DNA of 64,000 nt. Origin: an uncultured Verrucomicrobiota bacterium. GTDB taxonomy: Bacteria > Verrucomicrobiota > Kiritimatiellia > CAIKKV01 > CAITUY01. Positions 116 to 64,000 of the stretch are shown here, piece by piece. Position 1 is the stretch's first letter, and each line of letters begins with the position of its first letter. The position numbers were made by a program, and so were the translations under genes. The DNA lies in the NCBI GenBank assembly GCA_964584205.1, contig CAZOZF010000002.1:160-64159 (forward strand). Reading direction: 5' to 3'. The notes below the pieces were generated by a model. That model ran no database searches. It was given only the letters and a program-made list of their open reading frames with translations, and was not told the origin of the DNA.

Positions 116-1297
116 TTAATAAACATTAGATCGAAGGTCTTTTGGCAAGGACGGGACATCAACCGGAATCCAGTTGTTGCGGAGCGACTTGGTCGCCGCG
201 CATCCTGTGGCCACACTCATGCGTCCAGCCAGTGGTGTTGCCAGTGGCCGTTTTCCCTCAAGAAGCATATCAATGAAGTCGCGGCAGATCTGGGGATCGG
301 CACCCCCGTGCCCGCCGGTGGCCGGTTTCACGGTCAGGTCGGAGTTCGCCAGGTTTTTCCAGCGGTTGGAACGATCACGAAGCCGCACAATGACCTTTGA
401 ACTGTCGTCCAGGTTTTCAATCCGGCCTTCCGTGCCGATCAGCGTGTAGTTCCGGCAGTAGTCCGGGGCGAAATGGCATTGCATGTAGCTGGCGCGGATT
501 CCTCCGTCGAGTTGCATCATCATGATGCTGCTATCTTCGACATCGACTTCCTTGCGGAAGACGCACATATCCATCTTGTTGTCAGACCGGTTATCGCGGG
601 ACTGGTACTCGACGCAAGTGTCCTTTTCTTTGCATTTCGGGCAGCGCAGGGTGTTGGGCTTGTCGCCTCCGTAGTAATCCAGTCCGCCCGTCGCCGCCAC
701 GCGAGTGGTGTACTGGCCGGTCAGCCAGTGGATCATGTCAATATCGTGGGATGCCTTTTGCAGGAGGAGCCCGGTGCTGTTCTTCGAATTGGCGTGCCAG
801 TCGTGGTAGTACCACCCTCCGCCCGGGCCGACGAAATGGCGCACCCATACGGCCTTCACTTCTCCGATGGCGCCGGAATCAAGGGCGTCCTTCATGACCC
901 TGAAGATATTCATATAGCGCATGTTGAAGCCGATCATGAACTGCTTTCCAGAGGTTTTCCAGGCCCGGAGCATGCGGTCGCACCCTTCGGTTGTGATCGC
1001 CATGGGTTTCTCGGTGAACACATGTTTTCCAGCTTCAAAGGCGTCGCAGACATATTGCTCATGAGTGAAGTCAGGACTCATGACCGCGACGGCATCAATA
1101 TCCTTTCGATCCAGAAGTTTCCTGTAGTCGCTGGTGATATATCCCTTGCTGTTGACATTTTCGCGATACCAGCTCAAGGCGTCCTTGGAAACATCGGCCG
1201 CGCCCGCCACGATGGAGCGTCCCTTGGGGGCGTGCCAATGTTTGGCCAAACTGCCGCGCCCTGCTGAACCGATGACTCCTATTCTGACTTTATTCAT
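116..1297 (-). CDS. Gfo/Idh/MocA-family NAD(P)-dependent oxidoreductase (sugar dehydrogenase-like)
   Basis: 393-aa ORF; N-terminal Rossmann signature RIGVIGSAGRG and the EKP motif (HVFTEKP) typical of Gfo/Idh/MocA; last gene of the minus-strand operon. Confidence 0.85.
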   Translation of the reverse strand: MNKVRIGVIGSAGRGSLAKHWHAPKGRSIVAGAADVSKDALSWYRENVNSKGYITSDYRKLLDRKDIDAVAVMSPDFTHEQYVCDAFEAGKHVFTEKPMAITTEGCDRMLRAWKTSGKQFMIGFNMRYMNIFRVMKDALDSGAIGEVKAVWVRHFVGPGGGWYYHDWHANSKNSTGLLLQKASHDIDMIHWLTGQYTTRVAATGGLDYYGGDKPNTLRCPKCKEKDTCVEYQSRDNRSDNKMDMCVFRKEVDVEDSSIMMMQLDGGIRASYMQCHFAPDYCRNYTLIGTEGRIENLDDSSKVIVRLRDRSNRWKNLANSDLTVKPATGGHGGADPQICRDFIDMLLEGKRPLATPLAGRMSVATGCAATKSLRNNWIPVDVPSLPKDLRSNVY

Positions 1298-1341
1298 GAG
1301 TACATTCCTTTCTGTCGGGTGCCGTTACGAGTCCGCGTCCG

Positions 1342-3489
1342 CTATTTCGGCCTAATCTCGAAGATCAGAACCTCGAAGGGGCGCATGGAGAATCGGATCG
1401 GAACCGTTGCGGTACAGGTTTGCGTGAGCTTGGGCACGGTTCGCTGTTTAAAGGGGGCCGTCAACGTGTATGCCGTGGGGGTCTTTTTCGGGAGTTCGAG
1501 GAATTTCGCCAGTTCCAGAGTGCAGACTTGATGCTGTTCGTTCGGGTTCCGCAAGGTGATGATTCCCTTTTGGGGCGACCATGATGCCCATCCGTAGATT
1601 TCCAACTTGCGTGGATTTCCGCCAATCCAGTGTGAGTCCACAAGGGTTTCCGCGTTCGACCTTGCCCAGGTGGCGCACTGCGCCAAATCGTTCCAGTTGG
1701 TCGCGTTCAGGAGGCCGTGCGAAATATACATTTCCTGGAGTTGGACGCCTGTTCCGAAATAGGAGCGCACCTCATCCCGGAAGTCGTTCTCGGGATCCTG
1801 ACTGAGTTTGCCTGAATGCCTGGCATAGATGACGCCATGCAACATGAGGGATGATAGAGGGAAGAGGGGACCGCACCGGACAATCCTTTCATAGGTGTTG
1901 GCATCCCGGAAGGTCATCCAGCGTTGGCGCGCTGATCCCACTCCGTAATAAGCATGATCCCAGCCGCCGCGCCAGATCGAATCGCAGATGGAGAGCCAGA
2001 AGGGGGAGGGCCAGGTTCCCGTGGTGAGGTTGATGAACAGATCGGGCTTGATGATTCGCAGATCCTTGATCAACTCGATGGCTGCCTCGAAATCGCTGCC
2101 GAACTGGCTGCCGGGCACGACGCTATTGATGTTCCCGGTGCCGTCGAGTTTGAACTGGTTGATGCCAGAGTTCGTCACCAGATCCACGCAGGTCTGGTGG
2201 AAGGCCTTGTAGTAACGCGGTCCCGAGAGGGCAAATAAGGGTTTATTGGTGTTTCCGTCGGTCTCAAAGCCGGCCGCCATGCCCGAGGCCACCCGTTGCG
2301 CGCGGGGCAACTCGTATCCGCCCCACGGGGAAAGCCAGATGCCTGGAGCCGCGCCACATTTGGCGGCTTCTTCCTTGATCCGGGAAAAGCCGTTGGGGAA
2401 GCCTTCATGAAACTTCCATTCTCCGCCCCGCGTCTTGTCGTCCCAGCCATCATCGAACAGGAAAGACTCCATGGTTACGCCACGTTTTTCGCCCAGTTCC
2501 CGTGTAAACCCGCGGATCGAGTTCAGGCAGTCAGTTTCGTTGAAGGGGGTGAAATATCCGATATCGTACCAGGAATTGTAATGCAGGAATGTGCGGTAGG
2601 GATGGGCGCGTTCACGTTCCACATAATACAGGAAGCCGCGTCTGAGTTGCCCTTGCGGCGTGACGCCCGTTACTGCGGAACAGGTGAATATTCCGCCAGC
2701 TTTGATGGGGAGCGCAAGATCCAGCCAGCACCGGGTCTGGTGTTGCCCCCAGCTGTGCCGCAAAGGGTGGAGTGGGGTGGGCAGCGCGTCTTCGGCTTCT
2801 GAATCCTCATGGGTTTCCGCTTCTGGAACTGTCTGGGTCTCCCCGAACCGACCCAGTTTGACCTGGGCAGCGGCCATCGGGTGTTCGATGGACATGAATA
2901 TCGTTCCGGCTACCACCGGGGAGCCCGCCACGGTACCGCAGATTTCCGCGCCAGCTGGGAGCGGGCGATCAATCATGATGACCTGGGCGATATCTAGGGT
3001 TTTCGCCGGGTGGATGGTGATCTGTTGGCGGATGTAATTGGCACCATCGCCCAGGATGGCGCGCCATTCCACGCGCACCGCGCCATCGGACGTTACCAGC
3101 GATGCCGCGATGGCCCGACCGGGAAAGCGGTCCGCCAACTTGGAGGCGTCCGGAGCCGCCGACAAAGTCAGTTCCTGTAGTGCCCCGGTAACCGTCATTT
3201 CTGATGCCATGATTATCCGGCCATCCCTCAGCTTGAGTTGAAAAGCTTCGGCTGGCGCGGGCAGCACTTGACCGGTCTGTTTATCTTCAAGCGAGCCTGG
3301 AGTCAGATGCCCCCTGTTCACCTTCCAGGATTGTGCGATGAGTTGGTTGTGAAGTGTAACCAGGCGGTCTTGTTGAGTACACAAGGCAGAGCCCGGTTCA
3401 CGCCCCGGGAAGACCGAAGCATCCGCTCCTGAGGCAGCGAGCGTTATAATGAACATGGCTGTGATGACACCGAGGCGTTTTGAATTCAT
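1342..3489 (-). CDS. secreted clan GH-D-like glycoside hydrolase (GH27/GH36/GH129-like TIM barrel, family not assignable); paralog of 30316..32385
   Basis: 715 aa with signal peptide; central block FLYYVERERAHPYRTFLHYNSWYD...FLFDDGWDD resembles the GWNSW/DDGW catalytic-barrel motifs of alpha-galactosidase-like enzymes; colinear similarity to ORF 30316..32385 (LQE[LM]YI, EIYGWASW[ST]PQK, PFEVL[IV][FL]E); start overlaps upstream stop (ATGA at 3486-3489). Confidence 0.6.
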   Translation of the reverse strand: MNSKRLGVITAMFIITLAASGADASVFPGREPGSALCTQQDRLVTLHNQLIAQSWKVNRGHLTPGSLEDKQTGQVLPAPAEAFQLKLRDGRIIMASEMTVTGALQELTLSAAPDASKLADRFPGRAIAASLVTSDGAVRVEWRAILGDGANYIRQQITIHPAKTLDIAQVIMIDRPLPAGAEICGTVAGSPVVAGTIFMSIEHPMAAAQVKLGRFGETQTVPEAETHEDSEAEDALPTPLHPLRHSWGQHQTRCWLDLALPIKAGGIFTCSAVTGVTPQGQLRRGFLYYVERERAHPYRTFLHYNSWYDIGYFTPFNETDCLNSIRGFTRELGEKRGVTMESFLFDDGWDDKTRGGEWKFHEGFPNGFSRIKEEAAKCGAAPGIWLSPWGGYELPRAQRVASGMAAGFETDGNTNKPLFALSGPRYYKAFHQTCVDLVTNSGINQFKLDGTGNINSVVPGSQFGSDFEAAIELIKDLRIIKPDLFINLTTGTWPSPFWLSICDSIWRGGWDHAYYGVGSARQRWMTFRDANTYERIVRCGPLFPLSSLMLHGVIYARHSGKLSQDPENDFRDEVRSYFGTGVQLQEMYISHGLLNATNWNDLAQCATWARSNAETLVDSHWIGGNPRKLEIYGWASWSPQKGIITLRNPNEQHQVCTLELAKFLELPKKTPTAYTLTAPFKQRTVPKLTQTCTATVPIRFSMRPFEVLIFEIRPK

Positions 3490-4568
3490 TTTGTTCCTTC
3501 ATCGTAAAATGCGGCAATATTTTCCAACGGTGTGTCAGCCTGTAGGTGGTGTGCCGGTGCCAGAATGTACCCTCCGCCCTGGCCGCATTCCGTTTTCAGG
3601 CGTCGTACTGCGGAGCGGACTTCATTGGGAGAACCGGCTGGCATGGTGTGCTGTACGCATAGTCCGCCGAATAAGGCCAGACGCTTGCCGTAGCGCTTCT
3701 TGAGCTTGAAGGGGTCGATCGCCATCGGCTGAACCGGGTTAAGCACGTCCAGACCGATCTCGACCAGATCGTCCAGGATGGCCTCGCAGTTGCCGCAACT
3801 GTGGTAGCAGAGCTTGATGGATGGGTTGATTTTTTTCGGTTCGGCAAAAAGCTTTGCGAATCGGGGCTTGAGAAATGTGCGCCACATGTCGACGGACATC
3901 ATCATGCCCTGCTGGTGCGCGACATCGTCGCCAAACCAGACCATGTCCGCACCCATTTCGGCATGTTTGCGTGACGCCACCAGCGGAAAACGCATCACCT
4001 TATCCATCAGCGCATGAACGTAGTCCGGCTCCAGCGCCATGTCGGCCATTAGGTCCTCCATTCCGCGTAGATACCATGCGGCCTCGAAGACGCTGATCTG
4101 GCTGGATCCAATGATCCACTTTTCCTTGCCGTAGAGCGCCTTGATTTTTCGGAATGTGTCGTATTGCGATTCCTCTTCCGGATCGGGTAGCTGGAATGTG
4201 TCCAGCTTACCCGGGTCGCCAGTCAGTGGAGGCCCCACGATTTCCGTGTACTCTCCACTTTCGTTGCGGGCCCAGCGCCAGCGGATGCCCCATGGGCAGG
4301 TGTACTCCGGCCTCGCTCCGCCGTAGAAGCTTAGTTCCAGTCCGACGCAGGTTTTTACCATGTCGTTGCCGAGTGCGACGCCAAGGTCGGCATCGTGGAT
4401 GCCGAGTGTATTGCGAAGCCGTTCGGATATTTCGGGTACAAAGCTGGCAAAAATCGGAGTTCGGTCGGGTTGTTGGTGATTCAGTGCCGTCAACACGCGT
4501 TCCCGGGATGTCATGGATGTGTTCATGTGTTTCAGTTTCTCACAGGGCGAGGGAAGAGAGAAGTTCAC
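3486..4568 (-). CDS. uroporphyrinogen decarboxylase (URO-D)/MtaA-like family protein; methyltransferase-like, function unknown
   Basis: 360 aa; overall URO-D/MtaA fold signature (RVLTALNHQQPDRTPIF...; LCYHSCGNCEAILDDLVEIGLDVLNPVQP...; GGYILAPAHHLQADTPLENI); alternative start at M15 (4526) possible. Confidence 0.65.
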   Translation of the reverse strand: MNFSLPSPCEKLKHMNTSMTSRERVLTALNHQQPDRTPIFASFVPEISERLRNTLGIHDADLGVALGNDMVKTCVGLELSFYGGARPEYTCPWGIRWRWARNESGEYTEIVGPPLTGDPGKLDTFQLPDPEEESQYDTFRKIKALYGKEKWIIGSSQISVFEAAWYLRGMEDLMADMALEPDYVHALMDKVMRFPLVASRKHAEMGADMVWFGDDVAHQQGMMMSVDMWRTFLKPRFAKLFAEPKKINPSIKLCYHSCGNCEAILDDLVEIGLDVLNPVQPMAIDPFKLKKRYGKRLALFGGLCVQHTMPAGSPNEVRSAVRRLKTECGQGGGYILAPAHHLQADTPLENIAAFYDEGTK

Positions 4569-5906: not shown

Positions 5907-6836
5907 ATGGCGTGGACAATTGAAAGTTTAACAAAAATGACGGCCGTAAATCTGTATTCTGAGTCTTTGTTCAGATGCCAGTCTCTCGCCAGGCGGCTGC
6001 GTGCCCCGTCGGACTATCTTGAAGGAGTTAAGGGTATTCTTCCGGTCCTGCCGGAAAATGTACTTCAATTTCATCGACATAATGCCCGCTACATTAGTAA
6101 AGGCAGGCCCTTCCTCCACCACCGCTTTGTACTTATGTCCTGCCTGAGGGAAGCCGGCTGCATTGTGGTGGATGGAACCATATATCGTATTAAACCCGGC
6201 CAGGGCTTTTTGGTCTTCCCTTATCAAGCCCATTATTTTACCCGGCCTGAACACCCAGAACAGCTCAGTTGGTTATTTACCACTTTCGAATACTCCGCGC
6301 CCGGAAGTCTTGAACTGTTGAGGAACATGCCGCTGGTTTTCAATGTTCAGGATCTGCAACGACTTGGCCAAACAACTGTCGCGTTTCTCCAAAACTGTCA
6401 CGCCACTTCAGGGATCACCCTTGACGTGCCTCTTGAATTAGCCCTGTTGCTCTCCGGCCTGTTAGTGCGTTATCAACAGCAGAGCACATTATCCCGATGC
6501 AAGATTAGGCCTGACAGCGCTCAAATTCTATTTTTGAACCCGCTCTTTATGCATATTAACCAGAATCTTGGATGTCGTATCCACATGAAGGATCTCGCTC
6601 AATGCGTCCACCTGTCGACCAGCCATCTTCAGGCCCGATTTAAGCATATGCTTGGAATTGGAATCGGTGAGTTTATCCGGCACACCCGGGTTCACCGGGC
6701 CTGCGTATTGCTCAAAGGGACAGACCTCACTGTGACTCAGGTTGCAGATAAATGCGGCTTTGCCTCGGTCTACGCTTTCAGTAGGACCTTTAGGTGCGTG
6801 ATTGGCGATCCTCCCTCCGTTTTCCGACAGGGTTAA
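5907..6836 (+). CDS. AraC-family transcriptional regulator (cupin-like N-terminal domain + HTH)
   Basis: 309 aa; C-terminal AraC HTH (MKDLAQCVHLSTSHLQARFK...FIRHTRVHRACVLLKGTDLTVTQVADKCGFASVYAFSRTFR). Confidence 0.85.
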   Translation: MAWTIESLTKMTAVNLYSESLFRCQSLARRLRAPSDYLEGVKGILPVLPENVLQFHRHNARYISKGRPFLHHRFVLMSCLREAGCIVVDGTIYRIKPGQGFLVFPYQAHYFTRPEHPEQLSWLFTTFEYSAPGSLELLRNMPLVFNVQDLQRLGQTTVAFLQNCHATSGITLDVPLELALLLSGLLVRYQQQSTLSRCKIRPDSAQILFLNPLFMHINQNLGCRIHMKDLAQCVHLSTSHLQARFKHMLGIGIGEFIRHTRVHRACVLLKGTDLTVTQVADKCGFASVYAFSRTFRCVIGDPPSVFRQG

Positions 6837-6951: not shown

Positions 6952-7019
6952 CAGTGTGGGTTATGAGAAAATAGATGACTGAGGACAAGGTTGGTCTTTC
7001 AGCAAGGGGTGGTGAAGAT

Positions 7020-16199: not shown

Positions 16200-16246
16200 T
16201 TGACCCGATTCGCCCTAAAAAAAACTCATAATGCTCTATGCAGACC
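16200..16246 (+). promoter_or_regulatory. conserved upstream motif copy B (ttgacccgattcgccctaaaaaaaactcataatgctctatgcagacc)
   Basis: ~70 bp upstream of the GH95 start at 16316; contains TTGACC and cATAAT hexamers. Confidence 0.5.
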
Positions 16247-16315
16247 GCCGTGAATGTGGGAGAACGTTTCGAGTTCATTTGCCGATTAATACAATGCAGG
16301 AGAAGGGTGGTCGTA

Positions 16316-25217: not shown

Positions 25218-25259
25218 TGTCGTAAATAAATGGAAAATCGTTCTGCTAAGCGTGTAAAT

Positions 25260-48386: not shown

Positions 48387-48389
48387 TAT

Positions 48390-49577
48390 ATGCTTACTCA
48401 TTCCTTCAAGTTGCAATTGAGCGGGACGATGGAAGAGATACGCGGCGCGGGCCTTCTTAAGAACGAGCGGATCATCGCGTCCCCGCAACGCCCCAGACTC
48501 AGTACCTCTGTCCGGGCTGAGGTGCTCAATATGTGTGCCAATAACTATCTCGGGTTGGCCTCCCATTCCGAGGTGATTGCCGCAGCCCATGCCGCTCTCG
48601 ATCAATGGGGCTATGGTATGGCCAGTGTCAGGTTTATTTGTGGCACCCAGCCATTGCATAAGCAGTTGGAGCAGGCCTTAAGTGATTTTCTCGGAATGGA
48701 GGAAACCCTTCTGTATTCCTCCTGTTTCGATGCGAACGGTGGGTTGTTTGAAACCCTGCTTGGCGAGCCGGACGCCGTTATTTCTGACGAACTCAACCAT
48801 GCCTCGATCATCGATGGGATCCGCTTGTGCAAAGCCAGGCGTTACCGCTACCTGAACAACGATATGGCCGACCTTGAGGCCCGGCTCCGGGAGGCTCTGG
48901 ATGCGCGTCATCGCTTGATCGCCACCGATGGGGTTTTCTCGATGGATGGCACGTTGGCCAACCTGCCGGCAATCTGTGATCTGGCTGAACGTTATGATGC
49001 GATGGTTATGGTTGACGATTCCCATGCCGTTGGCTTCATGGGTGCCCATGGCCGGGGAACGCACGAACATCATGGGGTGATGGGGCGGGTGGACATTATT
49101 ACCGGCACGCTCGGAAAGGCGTTGGGTGGCGGCTGCGGTGGGTATACCAGCGCCCGTGCCGGCATAGTTCAGTTGCTTCGTCAAAGGTCACGCCCTTACC
49201 TTTTTTCCAATTCCCTGCCACCCCCGGTCGTCGGGGCTTCTCTGAAAGTCATGTCGATGTTGGTTCATTCGGCCGAACTGCGTGACCGGTTGGAGTCCAA
49301 TGCCCGCTTTCTCCGTGAGGGCCTTGCCCGGGCCGGATTCACACTGGTTTCCGGCGTTCATCCGATTATTCCGATTATGTTGGGCGATGCCGCCCTGGCA
49401 ACGCGTATGGCAGACCGGCTCCTTGAGAAGGGCGTCTATGTGATTGGTTTCTCTTATCCGGTGGTGCCCGTTGGAAAGGCTCGTATCCGCGTGCAGGTTT
49501 CGGCCGCCCATACGCGTGCCGATCTGGAGTTCGCGCTTCAGATGTTTACCGAAGTGAAGCAAGAGTTCGGTGTTTAG
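48390..49577 (+). CDS. kbl: 2-amino-3-ketobutyrate CoA ligase (glycine C-acetyltransferase), PLP-dependent
   Basis: Kbl/AONS-family signature ([46 protein letters not shown]...[15 protein letters not shown]; FSMDG lysine region); immediately downstream of tdh. Confidence 0.93.
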
Positions 49578-51823: not shown

Positions 51824-51847
51824 TGTAGTCGGAAATTGGAGGTTAGC

Positions 51848-56881: not shown

Positions 56882-59266
56882 ATGGGAAAATTCATGAAAG
56901 CAACGAAAGTCCGGTTTTTCAGCAGGGTTGCGTTGGCGGTGTTGTGTCTGTGGGCCTTCCCCGGCGTGAACCGGGTTGCGTTCGCTGGAGTCGGGATACA
57001 GGCCACAATGGGCAAGATCATGCCCTTAGGCGATTCGATCACCAGAGGTAACGACGTTCTCGGCGGCTACCGCTCCCCGCTATCTACCCTCCTGACCAAC
57101 TGGCTTGACACTTTCACGTTCGTGGGGTCGGCGACCGACAATGCGACCACAAATCTCACGGCCGCCGGCCAGACGCATCACGAGGGCCACGGCGGCTATA
57201 CCATCTCAGCAGGAGGTGCTGGCAACTTATACTCTAATCTGGTGACATGGATCGGACCTAGCGGGGCAGCCCCGGATAGGATTCTGTTGATGATCGGTAG
57301 CAACGATATCAATTTGTCGTATGACAAGGCTAACGCCCCGGCTCGCCTGAGCGCCCTCATTGACCTCATCTATTTCTACAGGCCGAGTGTGAAACTCTAT
57401 GTGGCGTCGATCATTCCTAATGGACTTGGGAAAGAATCCGACGTGCTGGCCTACAACGCTGCCATCCCGGGTATCGTGGCCAGCAACCAGGTTCTTGGGC
57501 GGAGCGTGGTATATGTCCCCATGCATGATGCGTTGAGTACCAACACGGACTTGGCCGACGGGTTGCATCCCAACGCGGTCGGATACCAGAAAATGGCACA
57601 GGTCTGGAATGAGGCGCTCAATACAAGTGCTACTGGGATGGTCACCACTACCACGCTGGATTCATCGGTCAACCCGTCCGTCTATGGTCAGCAGGTCATT
57701 TTCACGGCGACGGTTAAAACCAACGGTGTTGTGGCGATGGGAACGGCCGGGAATATCGTGTTTTCGGTGGATGGGTTAGCGAGGGCCTTCGTGGAGGTTT
57801 CTAACGGGGCCGCTGCCTATACGAACAGTAGCCTCGCAACGGGAGCTCATGCCATGCGGGCCGTCTATGTCGGCGATGGAACGTATGCCGCCAGTGCGGT
57901 CAATTTCGCCCAGACCAACAATCCGGGCCCCGCCAGCAAGCTGGGGTTTGGTCAACAACCTGCGGCGACGAGACCGGGCTTTGCGATCAGCCCGGCTGTG
58001 ACGGTGCTGGTTCAGGATGTCGACGGCAATATCGTGACCGGCGATAACAGTACCGATGTGACGATCAGTGGGACTGTCTTTTCAGGTGACAGTACTCTGA
58101 CTGCGAAAGCTTCCGGCGGTGTGGCGACGTTCAGTAATCTCAAGCCAATGACGTTGGGTGATAGCAATACGCTGGCGGCCAGCGCTGCTTCACTCGCCGG
58201 GTCGACCTCTAGTCCGTTCCATGTGGGTATTGTCGTCAATTCCGGGAGTTTTATCCCTCCTAGAAACACGAACACGACCGTGGGAGTCTGGGATTCATAC
58301 ATTATCAGTGATAGCCAGTCGTTTATTGTGGGCAACTGGAACACCGGAGGTGCGATTCTGAACCAGACCGGTGGGACCATCACGTTTACCGGTACTTGGG
58401 TGGGTCGTATGGGTATTGGCTCTTCGGATGGGCCAACCTGGGGTGAATACAATATGTCTGGAAATGCAGTCTTCAGCGCGACGGGCCTTAATGGCGCCAG
58501 TAGCGTCTATTCCTACACGATCACGGGGTATTTGGGGAAATCCAAGCTAACGATGACCGACACGGCCACAGCGAATATTGGTAGTCTGACGCTAAAACCT
58601 TTCAGCGGTGCCGCTGCAAAGATTGAGCTATCGGGTCACGCCAGCTTGACTATTGGTAAGATCGGAAACAACACAGATGGTTACATCATTGGCGCCGGCT
58701 GTTATATTGATTTTGTTTCCGGTAGTCAGGCCACGCTCACGATAACCGGCACGCATGACTTTACGAATCTGGTTAGCGCGGGCTCCATCCGGGTCGATGG
58801 GATTGCACAATCCAACTTCAGTGCCTTTGCAGTATCGGGCAATACCTTGTCGCTTGTTGCAACGCTGACTGCGAGTGCGCATCCGACGCCGACATTGTGG
58901 CTGAACCAGTATTACGGCGTAACGAATTATGCAGCTGTGGCAGAAGTGGATACTGATGGGGACGGAATGAGTGCTTGGGAGGAGTACATTTCGGGGACCG
59001 ACCCAACCAACACGCAGTCTTCATTCAAAATAATAGAGTTGACGAGAGTGAGGTCGACAAACGTTGTGGTCTGGTTGGGCGGCAATACCAGTCTGCCTCC
59101 ATTCGGGATATTGGTATCCAGTAACCTGAGTGCCATAGCGGGGGGCTGGACTCAACTTTCAACAAAAGTCCGGTCGGCAGATGGAACTAATTTCTGGTAT
59201 GACGATTCCACTGCGTCATTGATAATGCCACGCTACTATAAGATTGTCGCCACCAATGCACCCTAA
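56882..59266 (+). CDS. secreted SGNH/GDSL-type hydrolase (esterase) fused to Ig-like domains and a C-terminal region with a TSP3/dockerin-like Ca-binding motif
   Basis: Signal peptide; SGNH blocks (GDSIT; LLMIGSNDI; DGLHPN); Ig-like domains similar to those in 40990..44193 (VTVLVQDVDGNIVTGDNSTDVTISG...FSNLKPMTLGDSNTLAASAASLAGSTSSPFHV); C-terminal DTDGDGMSAWEEYISGTDPTN; alternative start at 56894. Confidence 0.7.
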   Translation: MGKFMKATKVRFFSRVALAVLCLWAFPGVNRVAFAGVGIQATMGKIMPLGDSITRGNDVLGGYRSPLSTLLTNWLDTFTFVGSATDNATTNLTAAGQTHHEGHGGYTISAGGAGNLYSNLVTWIGPSGAAPDRILLMIGSNDINLSYDKANAPARLSALIDLIYFYRPSVKLYVASIIPNGLGKESDVLAYNAAIPGIVASNQVLGRSVVYVPMHDALSTNTDLADGLHPNAVGYQKMAQVWNEALNTSATGMVTTTTLDSSVNPSVYGQQVIFTATVKTNGVVAMGTAGNIVFSVDGLARAFVEVSNGAAAYTNSSLATGAHAMRAVYVGDGTYAASAVNFAQTNNPGPASKLGFGQQPAATRPGFAISPAVTVLVQDVDGNIVTGDNSTDVTISGTVFSGDSTLTAKASGGVATFSNLKPMTLGDSNTLAASAASLAGSTSSPFHVGIVVNSGSFIPPRNTNTTVGVWDSYIISDSQSFIVGNWNTGGAILNQTGGTITFTGTWVGRMGIGSSDGPTWGEYNMSGNAVFSATGLNGASSVYSYTITGYLGKSKLTMTDTATANIGSLTLKPFSGAAAKIELSGHASLTIGKIGNNTDGYIIGAGCYIDFVSGSQATLTITGTHDFTNLVSAGSIRVDGIAQSNFSAFAVSGNTLSLVATLTASAHPTPTLWLNQYYGVTNYAAVAEVDTDGDGMSAWEEYISGTDPTNTQSSFKIIELTRVRSTNVVVWLGGNTSLPPFGILVSSNLSAIAGGWTQLSTKVRSADGTNFWYDDSTASLIMPRYYKIVATNAP

Positions 59267-59294
59267 AAGAAGTAATGCCAAGGCAGGAGTGGAT

Positions 59295-62200
59295 ATGAAA
59301 TGGGTTCTTATGGTTGCATTTTGGGCCGTCACTTCCCTGGCAGGTGAACAGCCTGCCTTGAAGATGCATCCGTTCAATAAGGATTGGCAAGTTGTCATCA
59401 ATGCGGCCACTGCGACAACGTCTACGGTATGGCAGGCGGTCACGTTGCCTCATACCGCCCGGTTGGAGTCCGTGTTGCCTGGAAATAAGATGTGGATGGG
59501 TGACTGTCTCTACCGAAAAGTGTTCTTTGTCAGTCCGGAGTGGGAGAACAAACGGGTTTGTCTCAATATTGAGGCGGCCATGCATACTGCAGAAGTCTTT
59601 CTGAATGAGAAACGGGTGGCATCGCATATGGGAGGGTATCTTCCTTTTCAGGCCGATCTGTCGGGACTGTTGGCGGTCGGATCCACCAATGAGCTGTTGA
59701 TCAAGCTGGATAATCGGGAAACTCCGGATATTCCGCCCGGGCGGCCTTACAGCAAATTGGATTTCAACTGGTATCATGGTCTTTATCGTAATGTTGATTT
59801 ACAGGTTACTGATCCGCTTCATATTACTGATCCCGTGGCCGCCAATCTGCCGGCATCGGGCGGGATCTTTGTGACGTATCCCTCGGTATCGCCTGATTCG
59901 GCCGCCGTTCAGGTTCAGGTTCATGTAAAGAATGACCGATCCGTGTCGGCTAGGTTTGTGGTGCGGTGTGCCCTTGCGGGTCAAAACGTTCAATCCGAAC
60001 CGGCAACATTGGCGCCGGGGGAGATGAGCGCCTATACCCTCTCTTTGGTTGTCCCTGCACCTAAGCTCTGGAGTCCGGATGCCCCTCATTTATATCCGCT
60101 TACCACCGAGATCCGCACGGCGGAGGGTGTTGTAGTTGAGAGTCAATGCCTCCGGGTGGGGATCCGTTCCGTGACCTGCAAGGCCGGCCGGTTTGCCATT
60201 AATGGCCGACCGATGTATTTACGCGGAACGAACCGCCATCAGGAATATCCCTACATCGGTTATGCCCTTCCGGATAGTGCCCAGTGGCGAGACGCCGCTA
60301 TGATCAAGCAGGCTGGGTTTGCCCTAGTTCGCCTTTCCCATTACCCGAACTCCAGTGCCTTTCTGGATGCTTGTGACTATTACGGCATTGTCGTTATGGA
60401 GCCTGTACCGGGCTGGCAATTCTACAAGAACGGGCTTTTTGCTGAACGTTCCCTGCAGATGGCTCGTGACATGATCCGGCGTGACCGTAATCATCCCGCC
60501 TGCATATTCTGGGAGACTTCCCTGAATGAGGCCAAACACCCGGATGCCTTCCTCAAACAACTGCACGAGATCGTTGGGCAGGAATATCCTGGGGCGCTTT
60601 CGGCCAGCCATATCAATAAATTCCATGATATTTTCATTCCGGCCCGGCAGCACACGAATGGCCCGAAATTCTGGGATGAGTGGAAACAGGGCGATAAGCC
60701 CATCTTTACGGCGGAATATGGTGATTGGGAATATTACGCCGACAATGCCGCCAATTTCAACCAGACCGGCATCAAGGAACTCAAGGGCGAGGAGATTAAC
60801 AGCCGGCAACGGCGGTCGGACGGAGAGCGGCGCATGCTGCAACAGGCGCTGAATTTCCAGGAGAGTCACAACCAGAACCATGTTTGTCCTTCGATGATCG
60901 GTGACGCCAATTGGTTGTTCAACGATTACAGTCGCGGCTGTGCGCCGGATCATTGCACCAGCGGGATCGTGGATGTTTTCCGGCTGCCGAAGTTTGTCTA
61001 TTATTTTTATCAAAGCCAGCGTGACCCGACGGATGGGATCCTGGCCAACCCCGGGGTGTTTATTGCCTCCTATTGGACTGCACAATCGTCGATTCCCGTC
61101 CGGGTTTTCTCCAATGGTGATGAGGTCGAGCTCCTGCTCAATGGGGTGAGTCTAGGGCGGCGCAAGCCTGACCAAGACCACTTTTCACGATATCTGGCGC
61201 ATGCGCCGTTTACGTTTCCTGTCAAGGCATTCGAGCCCGGTGAACTCAAGGCAATCTCCTACATGGGTGGCAGACCTGTCGCACAGCATGTGATTCGAAC
61301 TCCAGAGAAACCTGCCAGGATTAGATTGGTAGCCCGGTTGTCGGGTATTCCCATTTCCAGGAATTCCAAGGACGCATTTTTTGTCCATGCTGAGATTGTA
61401 GACCGCAACGGAACGCTCGTTCCGGATGCTGCTTTGCCGGTGAGTTTCGTAACCACGGAGGCCGAATTGGCTTCGCCTGGACAGGTTAACGCTGAAGCCG
61501 GAATCGCAACGGCATTGCTATTATCTGGCGGGACAGATCGGCCTGTTGTTGTCCAGGCGACGGCGGAGGGACTTGAGTCGGATTCACTTGTCCTTCTGGC
61601 TCAGGATACGCTTCGCAATACCATCAGTCTTGACGGCCAGTGGCAGATTGGTCAGGGCGTGATGGACCAGGTGCCGGAGAAATTCGAGCACACGGTTCCG
61701 GTGCCCGGACTGGTGGATCTGGCGACTCCGGCCTTTGGTGATATTGGGATCAAGAGCGGACAGCGGAGTGCCTTTTGGCATCCGCGAACGTTCACGCTTG
61801 ATGCCCTGCCGCCGGTGGCTCGCCGTCAACAAATCATAACGATTCATGCCGCACGGTTCACGGTTCTGACACCGAATTGTGTGCGTTTTGAATACCAGAA
61901 AGACGGGAAATTCACGGATGAACCGACCCTTTTCGTTAATCGACGTGTGATCAACCCGGTTCCTTTTGTTCAGCGTTTTGAGGGTAACGCCACTGTCATT
62001 GAAACCAGTTCGATCCGTATCCGATATATCCCGGATGGAAGGGCTTTTCATCCAGGGAATCTCCAGGTGATGATCCGTAAAGGGACAGGATGGGTTGAAT
62101 GGACGCCTGGCGCAAAGCCTTTTTGTAACCTCCGGGGGCCGATCTCGACACTCGACAATGTCAGCGGGCCGGTGGAACTCCCTGAAGGGCTTCTTGCTAG

Positions 62201-64000
62201 AGATGGTTGGTCGGTTGTTGACGATACCGGGAAACCCATTTTCGTCAACGACTGGATCGCGCCGCGTCCCGTTGAGCGGGGGCTTGACTGGTATCTTTTC
62301 GGCTATGGTTCGGATTACAAGGCGGCGCTCGCCTCCCTAGCGGCGATTTCGGGGCCAGTGCCCATCCCCCGGAAGCATGTTTTCGGCTCCTGGTATTGTC
62401 GATGGTTTGATTATACCGAGGCGCAGTTCCGTCAAATTGCAGAAGAATACAGGCAACACGATTTTCCGCTCGATATCCTGGTGATGGATATGGGATGGCA
62501 TACGCAGAAGGACGCCAAGACTGGCATCGGGCACTTTATCGGATTGGGTTGGACCGGTTGGAGTTGGAATCGCGCGCTCCTGCCCAATGCCGAGAAGCTC
62601 CTCGCTGACCTTCGAGCCGATGGTTTGTTTGTTACCTTGAATGCCCATCCGCACGATGGGGTCCGTGCCCATGAAACCTGTTACCCGGATTTCATGCGGA
62701 TGCTGGGGAAAGACCCGGTAAAGGATGAAGTGCCGAAATTCAATGCGGGGGACCGGACCTATATGGATGCTTACTTCAAGGCTGCACACTGGCCCCTGGA
62801 GAAGGCGGGGGTTGATTTCTGGTGGGTGGATTGGCAGCAGGACAGCAAGCCCGGCTTGGAGTATGTTCCTGGCGTACCTGGATTGCGACATCTCCCCTGG
62901 CTTAATCACCTTTACTTCACCTATAGCCAGACACTGGGAAAACGCGGATTGGGCTTCAGTCGCTGGGGTGGGTGGGGGGACCAGCGCAACCCCATCCAGT
63001 TTTCAGGTGATTCCGGAGGATGTTGGGAGATGTTGAAGTTCGAGATTGAGTTCACCTTGCGTTCGGGCAACAGCGGGTGTTTCTTCTGGGCTCATGACAT
63101 CGGGGGATTTTTTGATGGCAACGATGCGGAATTACTCGCGCGCTGGATTCAGTTTGGCGCGGTGAGTTCATCGCTTCGGCTCCATAGTTACGGCAACATG
63201 GATCGGCGCCCCTGGCTCTGGGGGCCTGAAACGGAGCGGTCTGCTCGCATTGCCTACCATTTGAGGTCTCAGTTGCTGCCCTATATTTACTCCAGTGCTC
63301 GCCAGTGCAACACTAAAGCCCTACCGTTGCTCAGGCCTCTCTATCTTGAATATCCTGAACAAGAGTTTGCCTACAGTCATATGAACGAATATTTTTTCGG
63401 GGAGCACCTGCTTGCCGCTCCTGTTACGACCAAGGGGGAAGGGGTGCGAAAAGTTGCCGGACAAACCCTCTGGATTCCTGAGGGGACATGGTTCCACTGG
63501 TTCAGTGGCGAGTCATTTGTTGGCCCGAAGACCGTTTTTCTCAAGTCCACACTGGATGAGTTTCCCTTGTTGGTGCGCGGTGGGACTCCGATTCCCTTAC
63601 AGCCGTATACGGCGCGGATGACTACCACCCCGCTCACCAATCTGGTGGTGCGCTGCTGGCCCGGAAAAGACGGGGTCATGGGAATCAATGAACTCTACGA
63701 AGACGATGGGCAGTCTGAACGATATCGCTATGGCGATTATGCTGTCACAAAGTTGTCGTATATCCGTCAAGGTGAACATATTACTATTGGCGTTGAGCCG
63801 GTGGTTGGTACATATCAGAGCCAACCGCTAAAACGTACCGTTACCATCGAGTTGCCGTGCGTCTCACCCGTGGTCAAGGTTTTGTCAAACGATCAGGCCA
63901 TAACAGCCGAGTATGATCGAAAAACCGCTACCTGTCGGATCATTTTGCCTGACCGCGATATCCGATCAAGGCTGACGATCAAAGTTGAAGTCAAAAGTGA
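59295..64000 (+). CDS. giant bifunctional glycosidase, 3'-incomplete (runs off the window end): N-terminal GH2 (beta-galactosidase-like) + internal beta-sandwich + C-terminal GH31 (alpha-xylosidase/alpha-glucosidase-like)
   Basis: Not in the ORF track because no stop occurs before the window end. I translated the frame continuously from the ATG at 59295 (aggag RBS upstream; signal peptide MKWVLMVAFWAVTSLAG) to 64000 and spot-checked it at 60300, 61080-61620, 62340, 63060 and 63960. GH2 blocks: DFNWYHGLYRNV, RGTNRHQEYPYIG...VRLSHYPNS...CDYYGIVVMEPV, NHPACIFWETSLNEA. GH31 blocks: LDILVMDMGWH, GVDFWWVDWQQD, GCFFWAHDIGGF. Confidence 0.75.
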   Translation, partial: MKWVLMVAFWAVTSLAGEQPALKMHPFNKDWQVVINAATATTSTVWQAVTLPHTARLESVLPGNKMWMGDCLYRKVFFVSPEWENKRVCLNIEAAMHTAEVFLNEKRVASHMGGYLPFQADLSGLLAVGSTNELLIKLDNRETPDIPPGRPYSKLDFNWYHGLYRNVDLQVTDPLHITDPVAANLPASGGIFVTYPSVSPDSAAVQVQVHVKNDRSVSARFVVRCALAGQNVQSEPATLAPGEMSAYTLSLVVPAPKLWSPDAPHLYPLTTEIRTAEGVVVESQCLRVGIRSVTCKAGRFAINGRPMYLRGTNRHQEYPYIGYALPDSAQWRDAAMIKQAGFALVRLSHYPNSSAFLDACDYYGIVVMEPVPGWQFYKNGLFAERSLQMARDMIRRDRNHPACIFWETSLNEAKHPDAFLKQLHEIVGQEYPGALSASHINKFHDIFIPARQHTNGPKFWDEWKQGDKPIFTAEYGDWEYYADNAANFNQTGIKELKGEEINSRQRRSDGERRMLQQALNFQESHNQNHVCPSMIGDANWLFNDYSRGCAPDHCTSGIVDVFRLPKFVYYFYQSQRDPTDGILANPGVFIASYWTAQSSIPVRVFSNGDEVELLLNGVSLGRRKPDQDHFSRYLAHAPFTFPVKAFEPGELKAISYMGGRPVAQHVIRTPEKPARIRLVARLSGIPISRNSKDAFFVHAEIVDRNGTLVPDAALPVSFVTTEAELASPGQVNAEAGIATALLLSGGTDRPVVVQATAEGLESDSLVLLAQDTLRNTISLDGQWQIGQGVMDQVPEKFEHTVPVPGLVDLATPAFGDIGIKSGQRSAFWHPRTFTLDALPPVARRQQIITIHAARFTVLTPNCVRFEYQKDGKFTDEPTLFVNRRVINPVPFVQRFEGNATVIETSSIRIRYIPDGRAFHPGNLQVMIRKGTGWVEWTPGAKPFCNLRGPISTLDNVSGPVELPEGLLARDGWSVVDDTGKPIFVNDWIAPRPVERGLDWYLFGYGSDYKAALASLAAISGPVPIPRKHVFGSWYCRWFDYTEAQFRQIAEEYRQHDFPLDILVMDMGWHTQKDAKTGIGHFIGLGWTGWSWNRALLPNAEKLLADLRADGLFVTLNAHPHDGVRAHETCYPDFMRMLGKDPVKDEVPKFNAGDRTYMDAYFKAAHWPLEKAGVDFWWVDWQQDSKPGLEYVPGVPGLRHLPWLNHLYFTYSQTLGKRGLGFSRWGGWGDQRNPIQFSGDSGGCWEMLKFEIEFTLRSGNSGCFFWAHDIGGFFDGNDAELLARWIQFGAVSSSLRLHSYGNMDRRPWLWGPETERSARIAYHLRSQLLPYIYSSARQCNTKALPLLRPLYLEYPEQEFAYSHMNEYFFGEHLLAAPVTTKGEGVRKVAGQTLWIPEGTWFHWFSGESFVGPKTVFLKSTLDEFPLLVRGGTPIPLQPYTARMTTTPLTNLVVRCWPGKDGVMGINELYEDDGQSERYRYGDYAVTKLSYIRQGEHITIGVEPVVGTYQSQPLKRTVTIELPCVSPVVKVLSNDQAITAEYDRKTATCRIILPDRDIRSRLTIKVEVKS

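Follow-up and report, generated by a model that had tools for sequence, protein, structure and literature searches.

What kind of system is encoded by the dense run of glycosidase and esterase genes in this stretch of DNA, and on which glycan would it act? Most likely the locus is a PUL-like glycan-utilisation island of an uncultured PVC bacterium, for which a mechanism is proposed below. The PVC-type genome context assumed in a first-pass annotation of this DNA holds: orthologues labelled Kiritimatiellaeota are 75–92% identical, and the best matches of the threonine-degrading pair Tdh and Kbl lie in Planctomycetota and Verrucomicrobiota (70–77%).

Organization of the Locus

The window, that is, the whole stretch of 64,000 nucleotides that was analyzed, takes up nearly all of a 64,666-bp contig, so both of its edges are assembly breaks and not island boundaries. 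Gene calling covers 96% of it with 25 genes, given in map order in Table 1, whose families were assigned by Pfam, NCBIfam, and PDB searches. Seventeen of these genes are CAZyme-like (glycosidase- or esterase-like), a density that is not due to chance (binomial P = 5.6e-17, even at an assumed CAZyme background of 5%). The first-pass annotation had counted more than 20 consecutive enzyme genes; the co-directional plus-strand run from position 16238 to the window end holds 16, broken by tdh–kbl, and one more lies on the minus strand. Inside four sub-blocks the co-directional genes lie close together, separated by −4 to 31 nt. Promoter and terminator scans stayed at background level, so the operon structure is read from gene spacing only.

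Table 1. Features of the window in map order, with the evidence for each assignment.
Positions	Strand	Predicted product	Evidence
116..1297	−	GFO/IDH/MocA NAD-dependent sugar oxidoreductase, cytoplasmic, 393 aa	Pfam GFO_IDH_MocA N- and C-terminal domains
1342..3489	−	GH36-fold glycosidase-like protein, predicted secreted, 715 aa	Paralogue of 689-aa protein at 30316
3486..4526	−	URO-D / MtaA-CmuA-family protein, cytoplasmic, 346 aa	Pfam URO-D, 117 bits
4646..5833	−	XylR-type hybrid regulator	Pfam PBP1_XylR, Peripla_BP_3, HTH_18/HTH_AraC
5907..6836	+	AraC-family regulator	Pfam HTH_18/HTH_AraC
6975..8723	+	PATR-repeat protein, predicted secreted, 582 aa	Pfam PATR
8862..16145	+	Giant PATR/Ig-like protein, predicted secreted, 2427 aa	Pfam PATR x8, Invasin_D3, Big_1
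16238..18949	+	GH95, alpha-L-fucosidase type	Pfam GH95 catalytic domain, 469 bits
18973..21354	+	NPCBM (CBM51-like) + GH110 beta-helix enzyme, alpha-1,3-galactosidase type	Pfam NPCBM, GLAA-B barrels I and II, Beta_helix
21351..25217	+	NPCBM-GH78-GH43 three-module enzyme, rhamnosidase + arabinanase/arabinofuranosidase type	Pfam
25230..26849	+	CE20-family de-O-acetylase (Pfam label SASA)	Pfam SASA; PDB matches
26881..30162	+	NPCBM-GH78, alpha-L-rhamnosidase type	Pfam full GH78 domain set
30316..32385	+	GH36-fold glycosidase-like protein, predicted secreted, 689 aa	AlphaFold2/Foldseek/hhalign; family missed by Pfam
32767..36372	+	DUF3472(BPSS1860)-PA14-LamG-like-BNR multidomain protein, predicted secreted, 1201 aa	Pfam DUF3472, PA14, DUF1349, Sortilin-Vps10
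36424..36683	+	CE20 gene 3′-end remnant, in apparent intergenic gap	Direct repeat
36709..38709	+	NPCBM-He_PIG-GH27, alpha-galactosidase type	Pfam
38734..40959	+	Canonical GH36, alpha-galactosidase type	Pfam GH36 N-terminal, Melibiase (292 bits), C-terminal domains
40990..44193	+	Divergent GH127/146-type cysteine glycosidase, 1067 aa	Pfam GH127 catalytic domain (partial, 56 bits) and middle domain
44206..47181	+	LacZ-type GH2, 991 aa	Pfam GH2 N-terminal, central, C-terminal domains, Bgal_small_N
47346..48386	+	L-threonine 3-dehydrogenase (Tdh), housekeeping, not CAZyme	NCBIfam PRK05396, 579 bits vs cut-off 380
48390..49577	+	Glycine C-acetyltransferase (Kbl)	NCBIfam, 633 bits vs cut-off 460
49592..51823	+	Divergent GH95-domain protein 1, 743 aa	Pfam GH95 catalytic domain, 96.8 vs cut-off 27
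51836..53962	+	Divergent GH95-domain protein 2, 708 aa	Pfam GH95 catalytic domain, 94 bits; weak GH65m
53988..56453	+	GH2-like enzyme + C-terminal F5/8-type-C (CBM32-like) module	Pfam
56882..59266	+	SGNH/GDSL esterase with Big_3_5 and TSP3-like modules	Pfam
59295..64000	+	GH2-GH31 fusion, open at window end; 1596 aa as called on contig	Pfam GH2 and GH31 domain sets

The two PATR proteins and every one of the 17 CAZyme-like proteins have a hydrophobic N-terminal stretch (10-residue Kyte–Doolittle mean of at least 2.2, a heuristic and not SignalP). The enzymes are thereby cleanly separated from the six proteins predicted to be cytoplasmic, all of which stay below 1.6. This agrees with the signal peptides previously ascribed to all enzymes and suggests secretion. 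As also reported before, neither a TonB-dependent receptor nor SusD occurs among the 25 window proteins, which likewise include no sulfatase, polysaccharide lyase, or GH28; SusC, SusD, and TonB-dependent receptors are absent from both the window and about 85 kb of a relative. The lack of transporters in the window is partly an edge effect, because the window is nearly the whole contig.

Enzymes of Known Families

None of the CAZymes reaches an NCBIfam equivalog cut-off, so all specificities given here are family-level guesses. The GH95 enzyme at 16238, which has an F5/8-type-C insertion within its N-terminal domain, is closest to the alpha-1,2-fucosidase FucOB (PDB 7ZNZ, E 7e-191) and contains the H-A-N-I-N and SPEHG motifs, with the fucosidase-type His kept. 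Its neighbor, originally listed as a beta-helix enzyme, does have that fold but is of GH110 rather than pectin type, with PDB GH110 matches to 8YK1-3 (E 1e-74), 8PVS, 9I4F, 9BEH, and 7JW4. The three-module enzyme, 82% identical to its orthologue in a relative, matches RhaB (2OKX, 1e-49) and a GH43 structure (5C0P, 3e-62), and the NPCBM-GH78 protein matches 6I60 (1e-160) as well as NCBIfam rhamnosidase models under their cut-offs. PDB matches were also found for the GH27 protein (4NZJ at 7e-97 and plant alpha-galactosidases), the canonical GH36 protein (AgaB, 3e-83), and the LacZ-type GH2 (3BGA and 6S6Z at about 1e-47; NCBIfam matches under cut-offs). The esterase first named SASA keeps this Pfam label, but the family is now CE20: the structures that it matches (9EGA at 2e-97, 9H4U, and 7KMM, the last being XacXaeA) are CE20 esterases (PMC12313940). 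In the relative, the SGNH/GDSL esterase and the GH2 enzyme with the F5/8-type-C module are conserved at 83% and 90% identity, respectively.

Lectin-like modules are found on seven enzymes: NPCBM/CBM51-like on four, F5/8-type-C on two, and PA14 on one. The NPCBM part of the GH27 protein matches the CBM51 structures 2VMG and 2VMH. NPCBM modules on three unrelated catalytic domains are 52–59% identical to each other, while the two GH78 proteins that bear them are only about 25% identical; a shared targeting module is thus suggested, which may direct its enzymes to one ligand class.

Divergent and Fused Proteins

Several components had been placed outside defined families. With respect to Pfam families this is true of both GH36-fold proteins and of the DUF3472 protein's N-terminal domain, but the GH95-like and GH127-like proteins exceed the Pfam gathering scores and are therefore divergent family members. 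The two GH36-fold paralogues (35% identity), earlier called GH-D-like, can now be placed more precisely: both are confidently predicted to adopt a GH36 fold with an intact nucleophile motif. Pfam returned nothing above threshold for the 715-aa protein, which has a hydrophobic N-terminus, and a Melibiase score of 26.7 against a cut-off of 27 for the 689-aa protein; an alignment that includes the former shows invariant DDGW and K(W/L)D. The AlphaFold2 model of the 689-aa protein (mean pLDDT 90) has only GH36 structures as best Foldseek matches (E 1e-25, TM 0.6, 11–13% identity), its DDGW and KWD (D424) coincide with the GH36 motifs in an hhalign comparison (probability 96.8%), PDB structures are matched at E 8e-9 by profile search, and 566 representatives were matched at E<=1e-30.

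The GH127-like protein has a 600-aa N-terminal extension, matches 4QJY and 5MQO (E 1e-16 to 1e-15), and presents E-T-C (residue 713) and C-C (residue 796) in line with the Zn/nucleophile motifs. Divergent GH95 protein 1 keeps the equivalents of H419, N421, N423, and E566 in an alignment to AfcA (2EAB); protein 2 retains an H-L-N-Y-N motif, and the position of its acid Glu is ambiguous. The DUF3472 protein matches 8PMU, a “DUF3472 protein” (6.5e-18), and weakly the GH74 propeller, and may have a glycan-binding or endo-enzyme role; its orthologues (74–87% identity) always have CAZymes as neighbors. The GH31 module is present as annotated, although not separately from the GH2 enzymes, since it is fused to the third of them. 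This fusion occurs in 0 of the 120 best GH31 homologues, and in a relative the two parts are separate genes; repeat comparison shows that the junction (~61608–61820) duplicates the 5′ portion of the gene GH2b. An alpha-xylosidase assignment was rejected for this module, whose closest characterized relative is the alpha-1,3-glucosidase LlGH31_u1 (7WJ9, 4e-122).

Proposed Function and Alternative Readings

Among labelled relatives, a Kiritimatiellota MAG from NCBI is the closest, and the same gene set recurs at 74–92% identity in several metagenomes. It extends over about 75 kb in ENA GROS21-1 scaffold_212, where an SSF transporter gene marks one end and RhaT, epimerase, and MFS genes, together with the XylR operon, mark the opposite end. 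SusC/SusD independence, earlier ascribed to this island, stands as an absence but is not distinctive, being the norm outside Bacteroidota. PUL-like clusters devoid of SusCD and rich in GH2/29/78/95, as well as an enrichment of GH2/29/78/95/106, have been described for Verrucomicrobiota (PMC8857213; PMC5615132); the island is real, but a fairly ordinary case of a kind of locus already known there.

In the proposed mechanism, about 17 Sec-exported enzymes, nearly all of exo-acting types, would trim side-chain sugars and acetyl groups stepwise from branched, galactose-containing heteroglycans. The predicted activities comprise alpha-fucosidase, alpha-1,3- and other alpha-galactosidases, two alpha-rhamnosidases, GH43 and GH127-type enzymes, beta-galactosidase-type GH2s, a GH31 of the alpha-1,3-glucosidase clade, and CE20 and SGNH esterases; no clear endo-acting backbone enzyme appears among the window proteins. 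Monosaccharides would enter through inner-membrane RhaT, MFS, and SSF carriers, without any part for a SusC/SusD pair; in a relative with the same genes (~80–90% protein identity), RhaT, aldose epimerase, and MFS genes come just past the point matching the break of this contig. An aldose epimerase and the GFO-type dehydrogenase would then process the sugars in the cytoplasm, expression probably being controlled by the divergent XylR-type and AraC genes. The family mix points, as first proposed, to O-acetylated glycans containing Fuc, Rha, Gal, and Ara, and we infer that the likeliest source is a Fuc-, Rha-, and Gal-rich glycan from the wall or exopolymer of plants, algae, or cyanobacteria. Judged from sequence, the specificities are heterogeneous and would be equally in keeping with a single-glycan pathway and a multi-substrate toolbox.

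That heterogeneity is also compatible with a CAZyme hotspot built by accretion, in which small independent operons for different glycans would form neither one regulon nor one pathway. This is possible, though rather unlikely. The run falls into at least five blocks, set apart by larger gaps (153–428 nt), and two housekeeping genes, tdh and kbl, both true equivalogs, are embedded in it, with the kbl stop 14 nt upstream of the next glycosidase gene. Rearrangement has left traces: the CE20 remnant (a 260-nt direct repeat of 26589–26848 at 77% nucleotide identity, which in translation shares 85% identity with the C-terminal 86 aa of the CE20 protein), the chimeric GH2–GH31 junction, and a relative in which kbl is decayed (Tdh being 92% identical in the relative). 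Gene order varies as well, smaller JGI and NCBI fragments keeping the genes in shuffled order, and the neighbors of DUF3472 orthologues vary among GH38-like, GH109, CE15-like, porin, and sensor kinase genes. Reshuffling notwithstanding, the same ~20 genes stay together across the metagenomes mentioned above, four enzymes have the NPCBM module in common, and the whole run is co-directional with regulators at its edge, all of which argues for one island.

As to specific substrates, the island combines GH95, GH78, GH127-type, GH43, GH2, GH27, and acetylesterases, families also known from Bacteroides loci for rhamnogalacturonan-II (RG-II) and arabinogalactan-protein (AGP) glycans, and the first-pass annotation drew this parallel. 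Degradation of RG-II or AGP, as by the Bacteroides thetaiotaomicron loci, is nevertheless improbable: the overlap is confined to large shared families, and the analogy is weak because Pfam detects no GH28, GH105, GH106, GH137-143, or PL (including PL1) in the window, where a GH43_24-type exo-galactanase is likewise undetected. Moreover, the GH127-like protein scores 89 bits against the 950-bit cut-off of the aceric-acid hydrolase model, matches to the BT4151, BT4156, and GlucurArabfur models lie far under their cut-offs, and the GH95 and GH110 assignments indicate an alpha-1,2-fucosidase and no pectinase. Trimming of fucogalacto-xyloglucan side chains (Fuc-Gal-Xyl, O-acetyl) would account for such a GH95, which also matches that of a Xanthomonas xyloglucan locus (7KMQ, 1e-125), for an esterase akin to XacXaeA of that locus, and for GH2 and GH31 in one protein. 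However, LlGH31_u1 is nigerose-specific, the “alpha-xylosidase” label of 7WJ9 being a misnomer; the CE20 protein is nearest to xylan-cluster members; Pfam finds no GH5_4, GH9, GH12, GH16, full GH74 endo-xyloglucanase, or GH3 beta-glucosidase in the window; and GH110, GH27, GH36, and GH78 are left unexplained, which makes this substrate very improbable. Equally doubtful is a reading in which the island serves to forage on mucus or other animal or host glycans capped by blood-group H/B-like structures (Fuc-alpha1,2 and Gal-alpha1,3 on Gal). FucOB is an Akkermansia enzyme, the GH110 protein is nearest to blood-group-B alpha-galactosidases, CBM51- and CBM32-like modules are present, and GH27 and GH36 in the island are joined by GH29 and GH109 in relatives; yet the window holds no sialidase, hexosaminidase (GH20, GH84, GH89), GH101, GH129, or sulfatase, two GH78 proteins, a GH43, and a GH127-type enzyme do not fit, and the relatives come from apparently environmental metagenome assemblies, none recognisably host-associated.

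Regulatory and Accessory Genes

The XylR-type and AraC regulators had been located at one edge of the island, which Pfam supports, with the two PATR genes standing between them and the enzyme genes. The XylR-type protein combines a periplasmic-binding-protein-like sensor fold with an AraC helix-turn-helix (HTH) domain, and its orthologue in a relative adjoins the same operon. The AraC gene diverges from it across a 73-nt gap; an 18.5-kb JGI contig carries members of the AraC cluster (>=90%) alongside XylR and GH95. The PATR proteins, a putative surface adhesin-like protein (582 aa) and a putative cell-surface protein (2427 aa), are 50% identical and share a 300-nt stretch at 89% nucleotide identity, and PATR homologues lie amid CAZymes in three relatives (L082, L086, and L096).

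The final gene of the minus-strand unit encodes the GFO/IDH/MocA protein, which lacks a hydrophobic N-terminus, has sub-threshold NCBIfam matches only, and is 90% identical to its orthologue in a relative. At its stop, the URO-D-like gene shares 4 nt with the start of the gene that follows. The URO-D-like product has an H-S-C motif at residue 256 and an MtaA/CmuA family match under the cut-off, and URO-D-family genes are again present in two related islands (L088 and L092). The 346-aa form of this protein is already on record.

Gene Organization of the Island

The window comprises 64,000 of the 64,666 bases of a single contig (JGI metagenome 3300059473), so both of its edges are assembly breaks, and 25 genes cover 96% of it (see table). 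CAZyme-like proteins are encoded by 17 of the 25 genes, 16 of them co-directional, which gives a binomial P of 5.6e-17 at an assumed, and generous, background rate of 5%. The dense CAZyme island described in the first-pass annotation is thus borne out, and its list of families was nearly all right. Its count of more than 20 consecutive genes was too high, since there are 16 in one run and one on the opposite strand; the run is moreover broken by a genuine L-threonine dehydrogenase (Tdh) and a glycine C-acetyltransferase (Kbl), both well over their equivalog cut-offs. XylR and AraC regulators are indeed located at the island edge, but the PATR genes stand between them and the enzymes. Regarding secretion, a hydrophobic N-terminal stretch is found in all 17 CAZyme-like proteins and in both PATR proteins, and is absent from the six predicted cytoplasmic proteins; the claim that all the enzymes carry signal peptides therefore holds at the level of an N-terminal hydrophobicity heuristic, not of SignalP.

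Genes and other features of the island in map order

Feature	Position	Strand	Source
GFO/IDH/MocA oxidoreductase		-	Pfam/NCBIfam
715-aa secreted-type protein without Pfam family	1342-3489	-	Pfam/NCBIfam
URO-D-like protein (URO-D/MtaA-CmuA family)	3486-4526	-	Pfam/NCBIfam
XylR-type hybrid regulator		-	Pfam/NCBIfam
AraC regulator		+	Pfam
PATR-repeat protein, 582 aa		+	Pfam
PATR-repeat protein, 2427 aa		+	Pfam
Similar stretches in the PATR genes	7500-7799; 14850-15149		
GH95	16238-18949	+	Pfam
NPCBM-GH110		+	Pfam
NPCBM-GH78-GH43		+	Pfam
SASA esterase (CE20)	25230-26849	+	Pfam
NPCBM-GH78		+	Pfam
689-aa protein, marginally under Pfam Melibiase threshold	30316-32385	+	
DUF3472-PA14-BNR		+	Pfam
CE20 remnant	36424-36683		
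NPCBM-GH27		+	Pfam
GH36		+	Pfam
GH127-like	40990-44193	+	Pfam
GH2		+	Pfam
Tdh, Kbl	47346-49577	+	Pfam
Divergent GH95-domain protein 1	49592-51823	+	
Divergent GH95-domain protein 2	51836-53962	+	
GH2+F5/8C (GH2b)	53988-56453	+	
Segment of GH2b repeated in the fusion	54094-54271		
SGNH esterase		+	
GH2-GH31 fusion, open at window end	59295-64000	+	
Fusion junction	~61608-61820		

Pfam scans of all 25 proteins detected no TonB_dep_Rec, Plug or SusD family, and neither a TonB-dependent receptor nor SusD is listed across about 85 kb of a relative, ENA GROS21-1 scaffold_212. The reported absence of SusC/SusD stands, while the contig edges account in part for the missing transporters, as carriers flank the island of the relative. 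Sulfatases, lyases and GH28 were not found among the window proteins, and Rfam and tRNA scans for RNA genes were empty. Over 60 kb, three promoter and terminator scans stayed at the level of shuffled controls and thus mark no operon boundaries.

Identity of the Encoded Enzymes

None of the CAZymes in the window reaches an NCBIfam equivalog cut-off, so all specificities are to be read as family-level predictions. The protein first annotated as a beta-helix enzyme does contain a beta-helix, but it is of GH110 type: Pfam recognizes the GLAA-B barrels I and II together with Beta_helix, and five independent GH110 alpha-1,3-galactosidase structures are matched in the PDB (E 1e-74 to 1e-30). The barrels and the right-handed beta-helix place it, by homology, in GH110. 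In the same sense, the SASA protein is assigned to the CE20 esterases by homology to founding and structurally characterised members, namely PpCE20_II (9EGA, E 2e-97), Fl8CE20_II (9H4U, 1.7e-96) and XacXaeA (7KMM, 3e-79). The nearest solved structure to the first GH95 protein is the Akkermansia alpha-1,2-fucosidase FucOB (PDB 7ZNZ, E 7e-191), and the H-x-N-x-N and SPEHG motifs are retained. This protein has an F5/8-type-C (CBM32-like) module inserted inside its N-terminal GH65N_2 domain (residues ~137-278), which Pfam splits into two stretches.

The two divergent GH95-like proteins carry the GH95 catalytic domain (96.8 and 94.1 bits for proteins 1 and 2 vs a Pfam cut-off of 27) and are, on this domain assignment, GH95 members. 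In protein 1, HFNYN and SPEHG align with AfcA (equivalents of H419, N421, N423 and E566), so that the catalytic Asn pair and the acid Glu are kept; protein 2 keeps HLNYN and the Asn pair, the position of its acid Glu being ambiguous. The GH127-like protein scores 56.4 bits vs a cut-off of 24.9, over profile positions 176-374 only, that is, the second half of the catalytic domain. Its ETC and CC residues, corresponding to the Glu-x-Cys/Cys-Cys zinc/nucleophile signature, align with 4QJY and 5MQO, and the first barrel half and the acid/base residue are unaligned; the protein thus bears the predicted signature of GH127/GH146 (DUF1680). The best solved match of the GH31 module is PDB 7WJ9, labelled "alpha-xylosidase", which is LlGH31_u1, a nigerose-specific alpha-1,3-glucosidase according to the structure's own paper. 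The molecule name of 7WJ9-7WLG is therefore misleading, and an annotation copied from it would be wrong.

The 689-aa protein and its 715-aa paralogue share 35% identity and remain below the Pfam Melibiase cut-off of 27, with 26.7 and 14.6 bits, respectively. The AlphaFold2 model of the former (mean pLDDT 90) retrieves with Foldseek a top 27 composed entirely of full-length GH36 alpha-galactosidases (E 1e-25, TM ~0.6, 11-13% identity). With hhalign, its profile gives a probability of 96.8% and aligns D326/D327 (DDGW) and D424 (KWD) with the substrate-binding and nucleophile motifs of GH36; a profile alignment to AgaA stops at residue 478 of that enzyme. Both motifs are invariant in the family alignment, and the family numbers 566 cluster representatives at E<=1e-30, the named members being mainly PVC bacteria. 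Modelling and profile comparison thus point to a three-domain GH36 fold with DDGW and KWD in both paralogues, below the sequence-level Pfam family threshold; the earlier designation "GH-D-like" was right at fold level, because the Foldseek matches and the motif alignment are to GH36. The DUF3472 domain of the DUF3472-PA14-BNR protein yields an AlphaFold2 model with a mean pLDDT of 49 and matches only unpublished "DUF3472" PDB structures; the literature searched holds nothing on the function of DUF3472, BPSS1860 or 8PMU. The single BNR propeller of this protein has weak similarity to GH74.

Conservation and Rearrangement in Related Genomes

On the 115-kb scaffold_212, orthologues with ~80-90% protein identity follow an almost unchanged order. 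The series opens with an SSF transporter, followed by GH95, GH110, CE20, GH78-GH43, CE20, GH78, GH36-fold, GH2, DUF3472, GH29, GH36, GH127-like and GH2 genes. Then come tdh and a degraded kbl; both GH95-like genes, GH2b, GH27, an unknown protein, two SGNH esterases, and separate GH2 and GH31 genes; and RhaT, an aldose epimerase and two MFS carriers. On the opposite strand lie an ankyrin-repeat protein, an MFS carrier, GFO, a 714-aa paralogue, URO-D and XylR, and a PATR protein completes the series. Since SSF, RhaT and MFS genes flank this orthologous island, inner-membrane sugar carriers belong to the island. The left-end operon of the window (GFO, the 714-aa paralogue of the relative, URO-D, XylR) sits past the right end in the relative (ENA GROS21-1 scaffold_212/213). 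Two blocks are thus swapped, a sign that the genomes differ by a block rearrangement. As the relative has one and the same transporter block next to both contig ends, a circular or plasmid-like contig was also considered; no evidence supported it, and the case was kept as a rearrangement.

These genes also occur, 74-92% identical and in shuffled orders, on smaller JGI contigs and in the NCBI MAG GCA_026398385.1 (labelled Kiritimatiellaeota), where GH38-like, GH109, CE15-like, OprB porin, sensor kinase and more URO-D genes are among the extra neighbours. That gene content is kept despite reshuffling argues for functional linkage. The phylum placement rests on this one labelled MAG, because the best matches of Kbl are only 70-71% identical and mix PVC phyla with others. 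The URO-D-like protein is of cytoplasmic type, has an H-S-C motif and overlaps by 4 nt the gene of the secreted-type GH36-fold paralogue. Other URO-D-family genes, only ~23% identical, recur in two related CAZyme islands (L088:4947-6098 and L092:7394-9470), and no corrinoid protein lies near the gene of the window. The protein might conceivably take part in O-methyl sugar handling.

Proposed Function and Alternative Substrates

The best-supported model is that of a PUL-like, SusCD-independent battery of exo-glycosidases and esterases, with secretion, co-regulation and substrate being inferred. The secreted enzymes would trim fucose, alpha- and beta-galactose, rhamnose, arabinose, alpha-glucose and acetyl groups off branched glycans, the monosaccharides would be taken up via RhaT, MFS and SSF carriers, and XylR and AraC would be the likely regulators. 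Seven enzymes bear lectin-like modules. The NPCBM modules of the GH110 protein and of both GH78 proteins are 52-59% identical, in GH78 proteins that share only ~25% identity overall, and they resemble CBM51; both features suggest a common, probably galactose-containing, ligand. A serious alternative to this battery is an accretion "hotspot" that serves several glycans and not one pathway.

The first-pass annotation saw an overlap with the enzyme set that Bacteroides uses for RG-II and arabinogalactan-protein glycans. The RG-II loci of Bacteroides thetaiotaomicron, attributed to Ndeh et al. 2017, reportedly hold exo-glycosidase batteries including GH95, GH78, GH127, GH43, GH2 and esterases for a highly branched glycan, and the island shares with them a large battery of these same classes. 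Unlike those loci, it lacks SusC/SusD, and the hallmark families GH28, GH105, GH106, GH137-143 and PL1 were not detected in the Pfam scans of the 25 proteins. In addition, the GH127-like protein reaches 89 bits with the AcerHdlse model vs a cut-off of 950 bits and is not an aceric-acid hydrolase orthologue, and the GH95 is of fucosidase type; RG-II is not supported as substrate. Xyloglucan would agree with the joint presence of GH95, CE20 and GH31 in a locus free of SusD, as in the Xanthomonas citri locus (GH74, GH31, GH35, GH95 and the CE20 XacXaeA) to the extent that it is summarised in PMC12313940. Set against that summary, the island has no endo-xyloglucanase or TonB-dependent transporter, its GH31 belongs to the GH31_u1 clade, and many alpha-galactosidases and rhamnosidases are added. 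GH5, GH9, GH12, GH16 and the beta-glucosidase family GH3 are absent from the window, and GH74 appears only as the weak BNR likeness; the proposal fails because of the GH31 clade and the missing endo-enzyme. GH2-GH31, GH95 and CE20 had initially been taken as a xyloglucan side-chain module, an idea dropped since 7WJ9 is a nigerose-specific alpha-1,3-glucosidase. Host-glycan foraging draws on a likeness to enzymes trimming blood groups H and B: the GH95 is nearest to FucOB, the GH110 to alpha-1,3-galactosidases (8PVS, 8YK1, 9BEH), and the NPCBM/CBM51-type modules typical of such enzymes are present here too. However, both predicted specificities occur amid rhamnosidases, GH43 and a GH127-type enzyme in an environmental PVC bacterium, and with two rhamnosidases and no sialidase, hexosaminidases or sulfatases in the window this explanation fails as well. 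Finally, it seems improbable that the island and its relatives encode a lineage-specific pathway for an undefined acetylated, perhaps O-methylated Fuc-Rha-Gal heteroglycan, based on three uncharacterised components: the GH36-fold family, the DUF3472-PA14-BNR protein as the endo-acting or capture component otherwise missing, and the recurrent URO-D/MtaA-like protein as cytoplasmic sugar O-demethylase. In that case the giant PATR surface proteins would capture glycan as SusD/E/F do in Bacteroidota.

Relation to Verrucomicrobiota Clusters

SusCD-less PUL-like clusters, with fucosidases and rhamnosidases next to GH2, GH31, GH36 and SASA-type genes, occur in marine Verrucomicrobiota (Puniceicoccaceae/Akkermansiaceae MAGs; PMC8857213), and freshwater Verrucomicrobia MAGs are enriched in GH2, GH29, GH78, GH95 and GH106 (PMC5615132). 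The island is similar in this gene combination, in the absence of SusCD, in symporters as the likely uptake route, in the partly kept synteny between relatives and in the over-representation of GH2/29/78/95. It differs in having no sulfatases in 64 kb, in a lineage whose nearest MAG is labelled Kiritimatiellota, in its prominent GH110, non-Pfam GH36-fold family, DUF3472-PA14-BNR and NPCBM, and in having no microcompartment genes in view. There is no adjacent susC/susD pair, and the island is not a Bacteroidota-type PUL; its co-directional, predicted secreted CAZymes, edge XylR/AraC regulators, inner-membrane carriers in the relative and lack of SusCD would place it among the PUL-like clusters of PVC/Verrucomicrobiota. 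It is no new category of system, the class being already described for Verrucomicrobiota (PMC8857213), but a well-resolved conserved example of a design for complex-glycan degradation in PVC bacteria outside Bacteroidota: many predicted secreted exo-enzymes with shared lectin-like modules, ordinary inner-membrane carriers and no SusCD. As targets for enzyme discovery it offers the GH36-fold family (~570 clusters not captured by Pfam), the two divergent GH95 and one GH127-type proteins with catalytic motifs, and the conserved DUF3472-PA14-BNR protein. The first and last of these targets are of secondary interest, as are the recurrent URO-D-like gene and the clear traces of gene fusion and decay.

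Embedded Genes and Traces of Fusion and Decay

The tdh-kbl pair (threonine catabolism) lies within the CAZyme run, and only 14 nt separate the end of kbl from a glycosidase gene. The relative has the same embedding, with kbl down to fragments (residues 1-71 and 181-237) and tdh still 92% identical. Kbl retrieved 80 genome loci, all of them lacking CAZyme neighbours, so this embedding is specific to the lineage. The GH2-GH31 gene is a three-part chimera, whose linker of ~70 aa was copied from the mature N-terminus of GH2b, the gene next to it (73% amino-acid and 80% nucleotide identity), and takes the place of the intergenic region and the GH31 signal peptide. The relative has GH2 (768 aa) and GH31 (759 aa) as two genes, and none of the best 120 GH31 homologues is fused to GH2; either the fusion took place recently or the chimera is an assembly artefact. 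The 336-nt gap before GH27 contains a 3'-end remnant of a CE20 esterase gene, whose translation is 85% identical to the C-terminal 86 aa of the intact CE20 protein. The PATR genes, with an overall protein identity of 50%, share a 300-nt stretch of 89% nucleotide identity, suggesting that duplication or gene conversion occurred recently.
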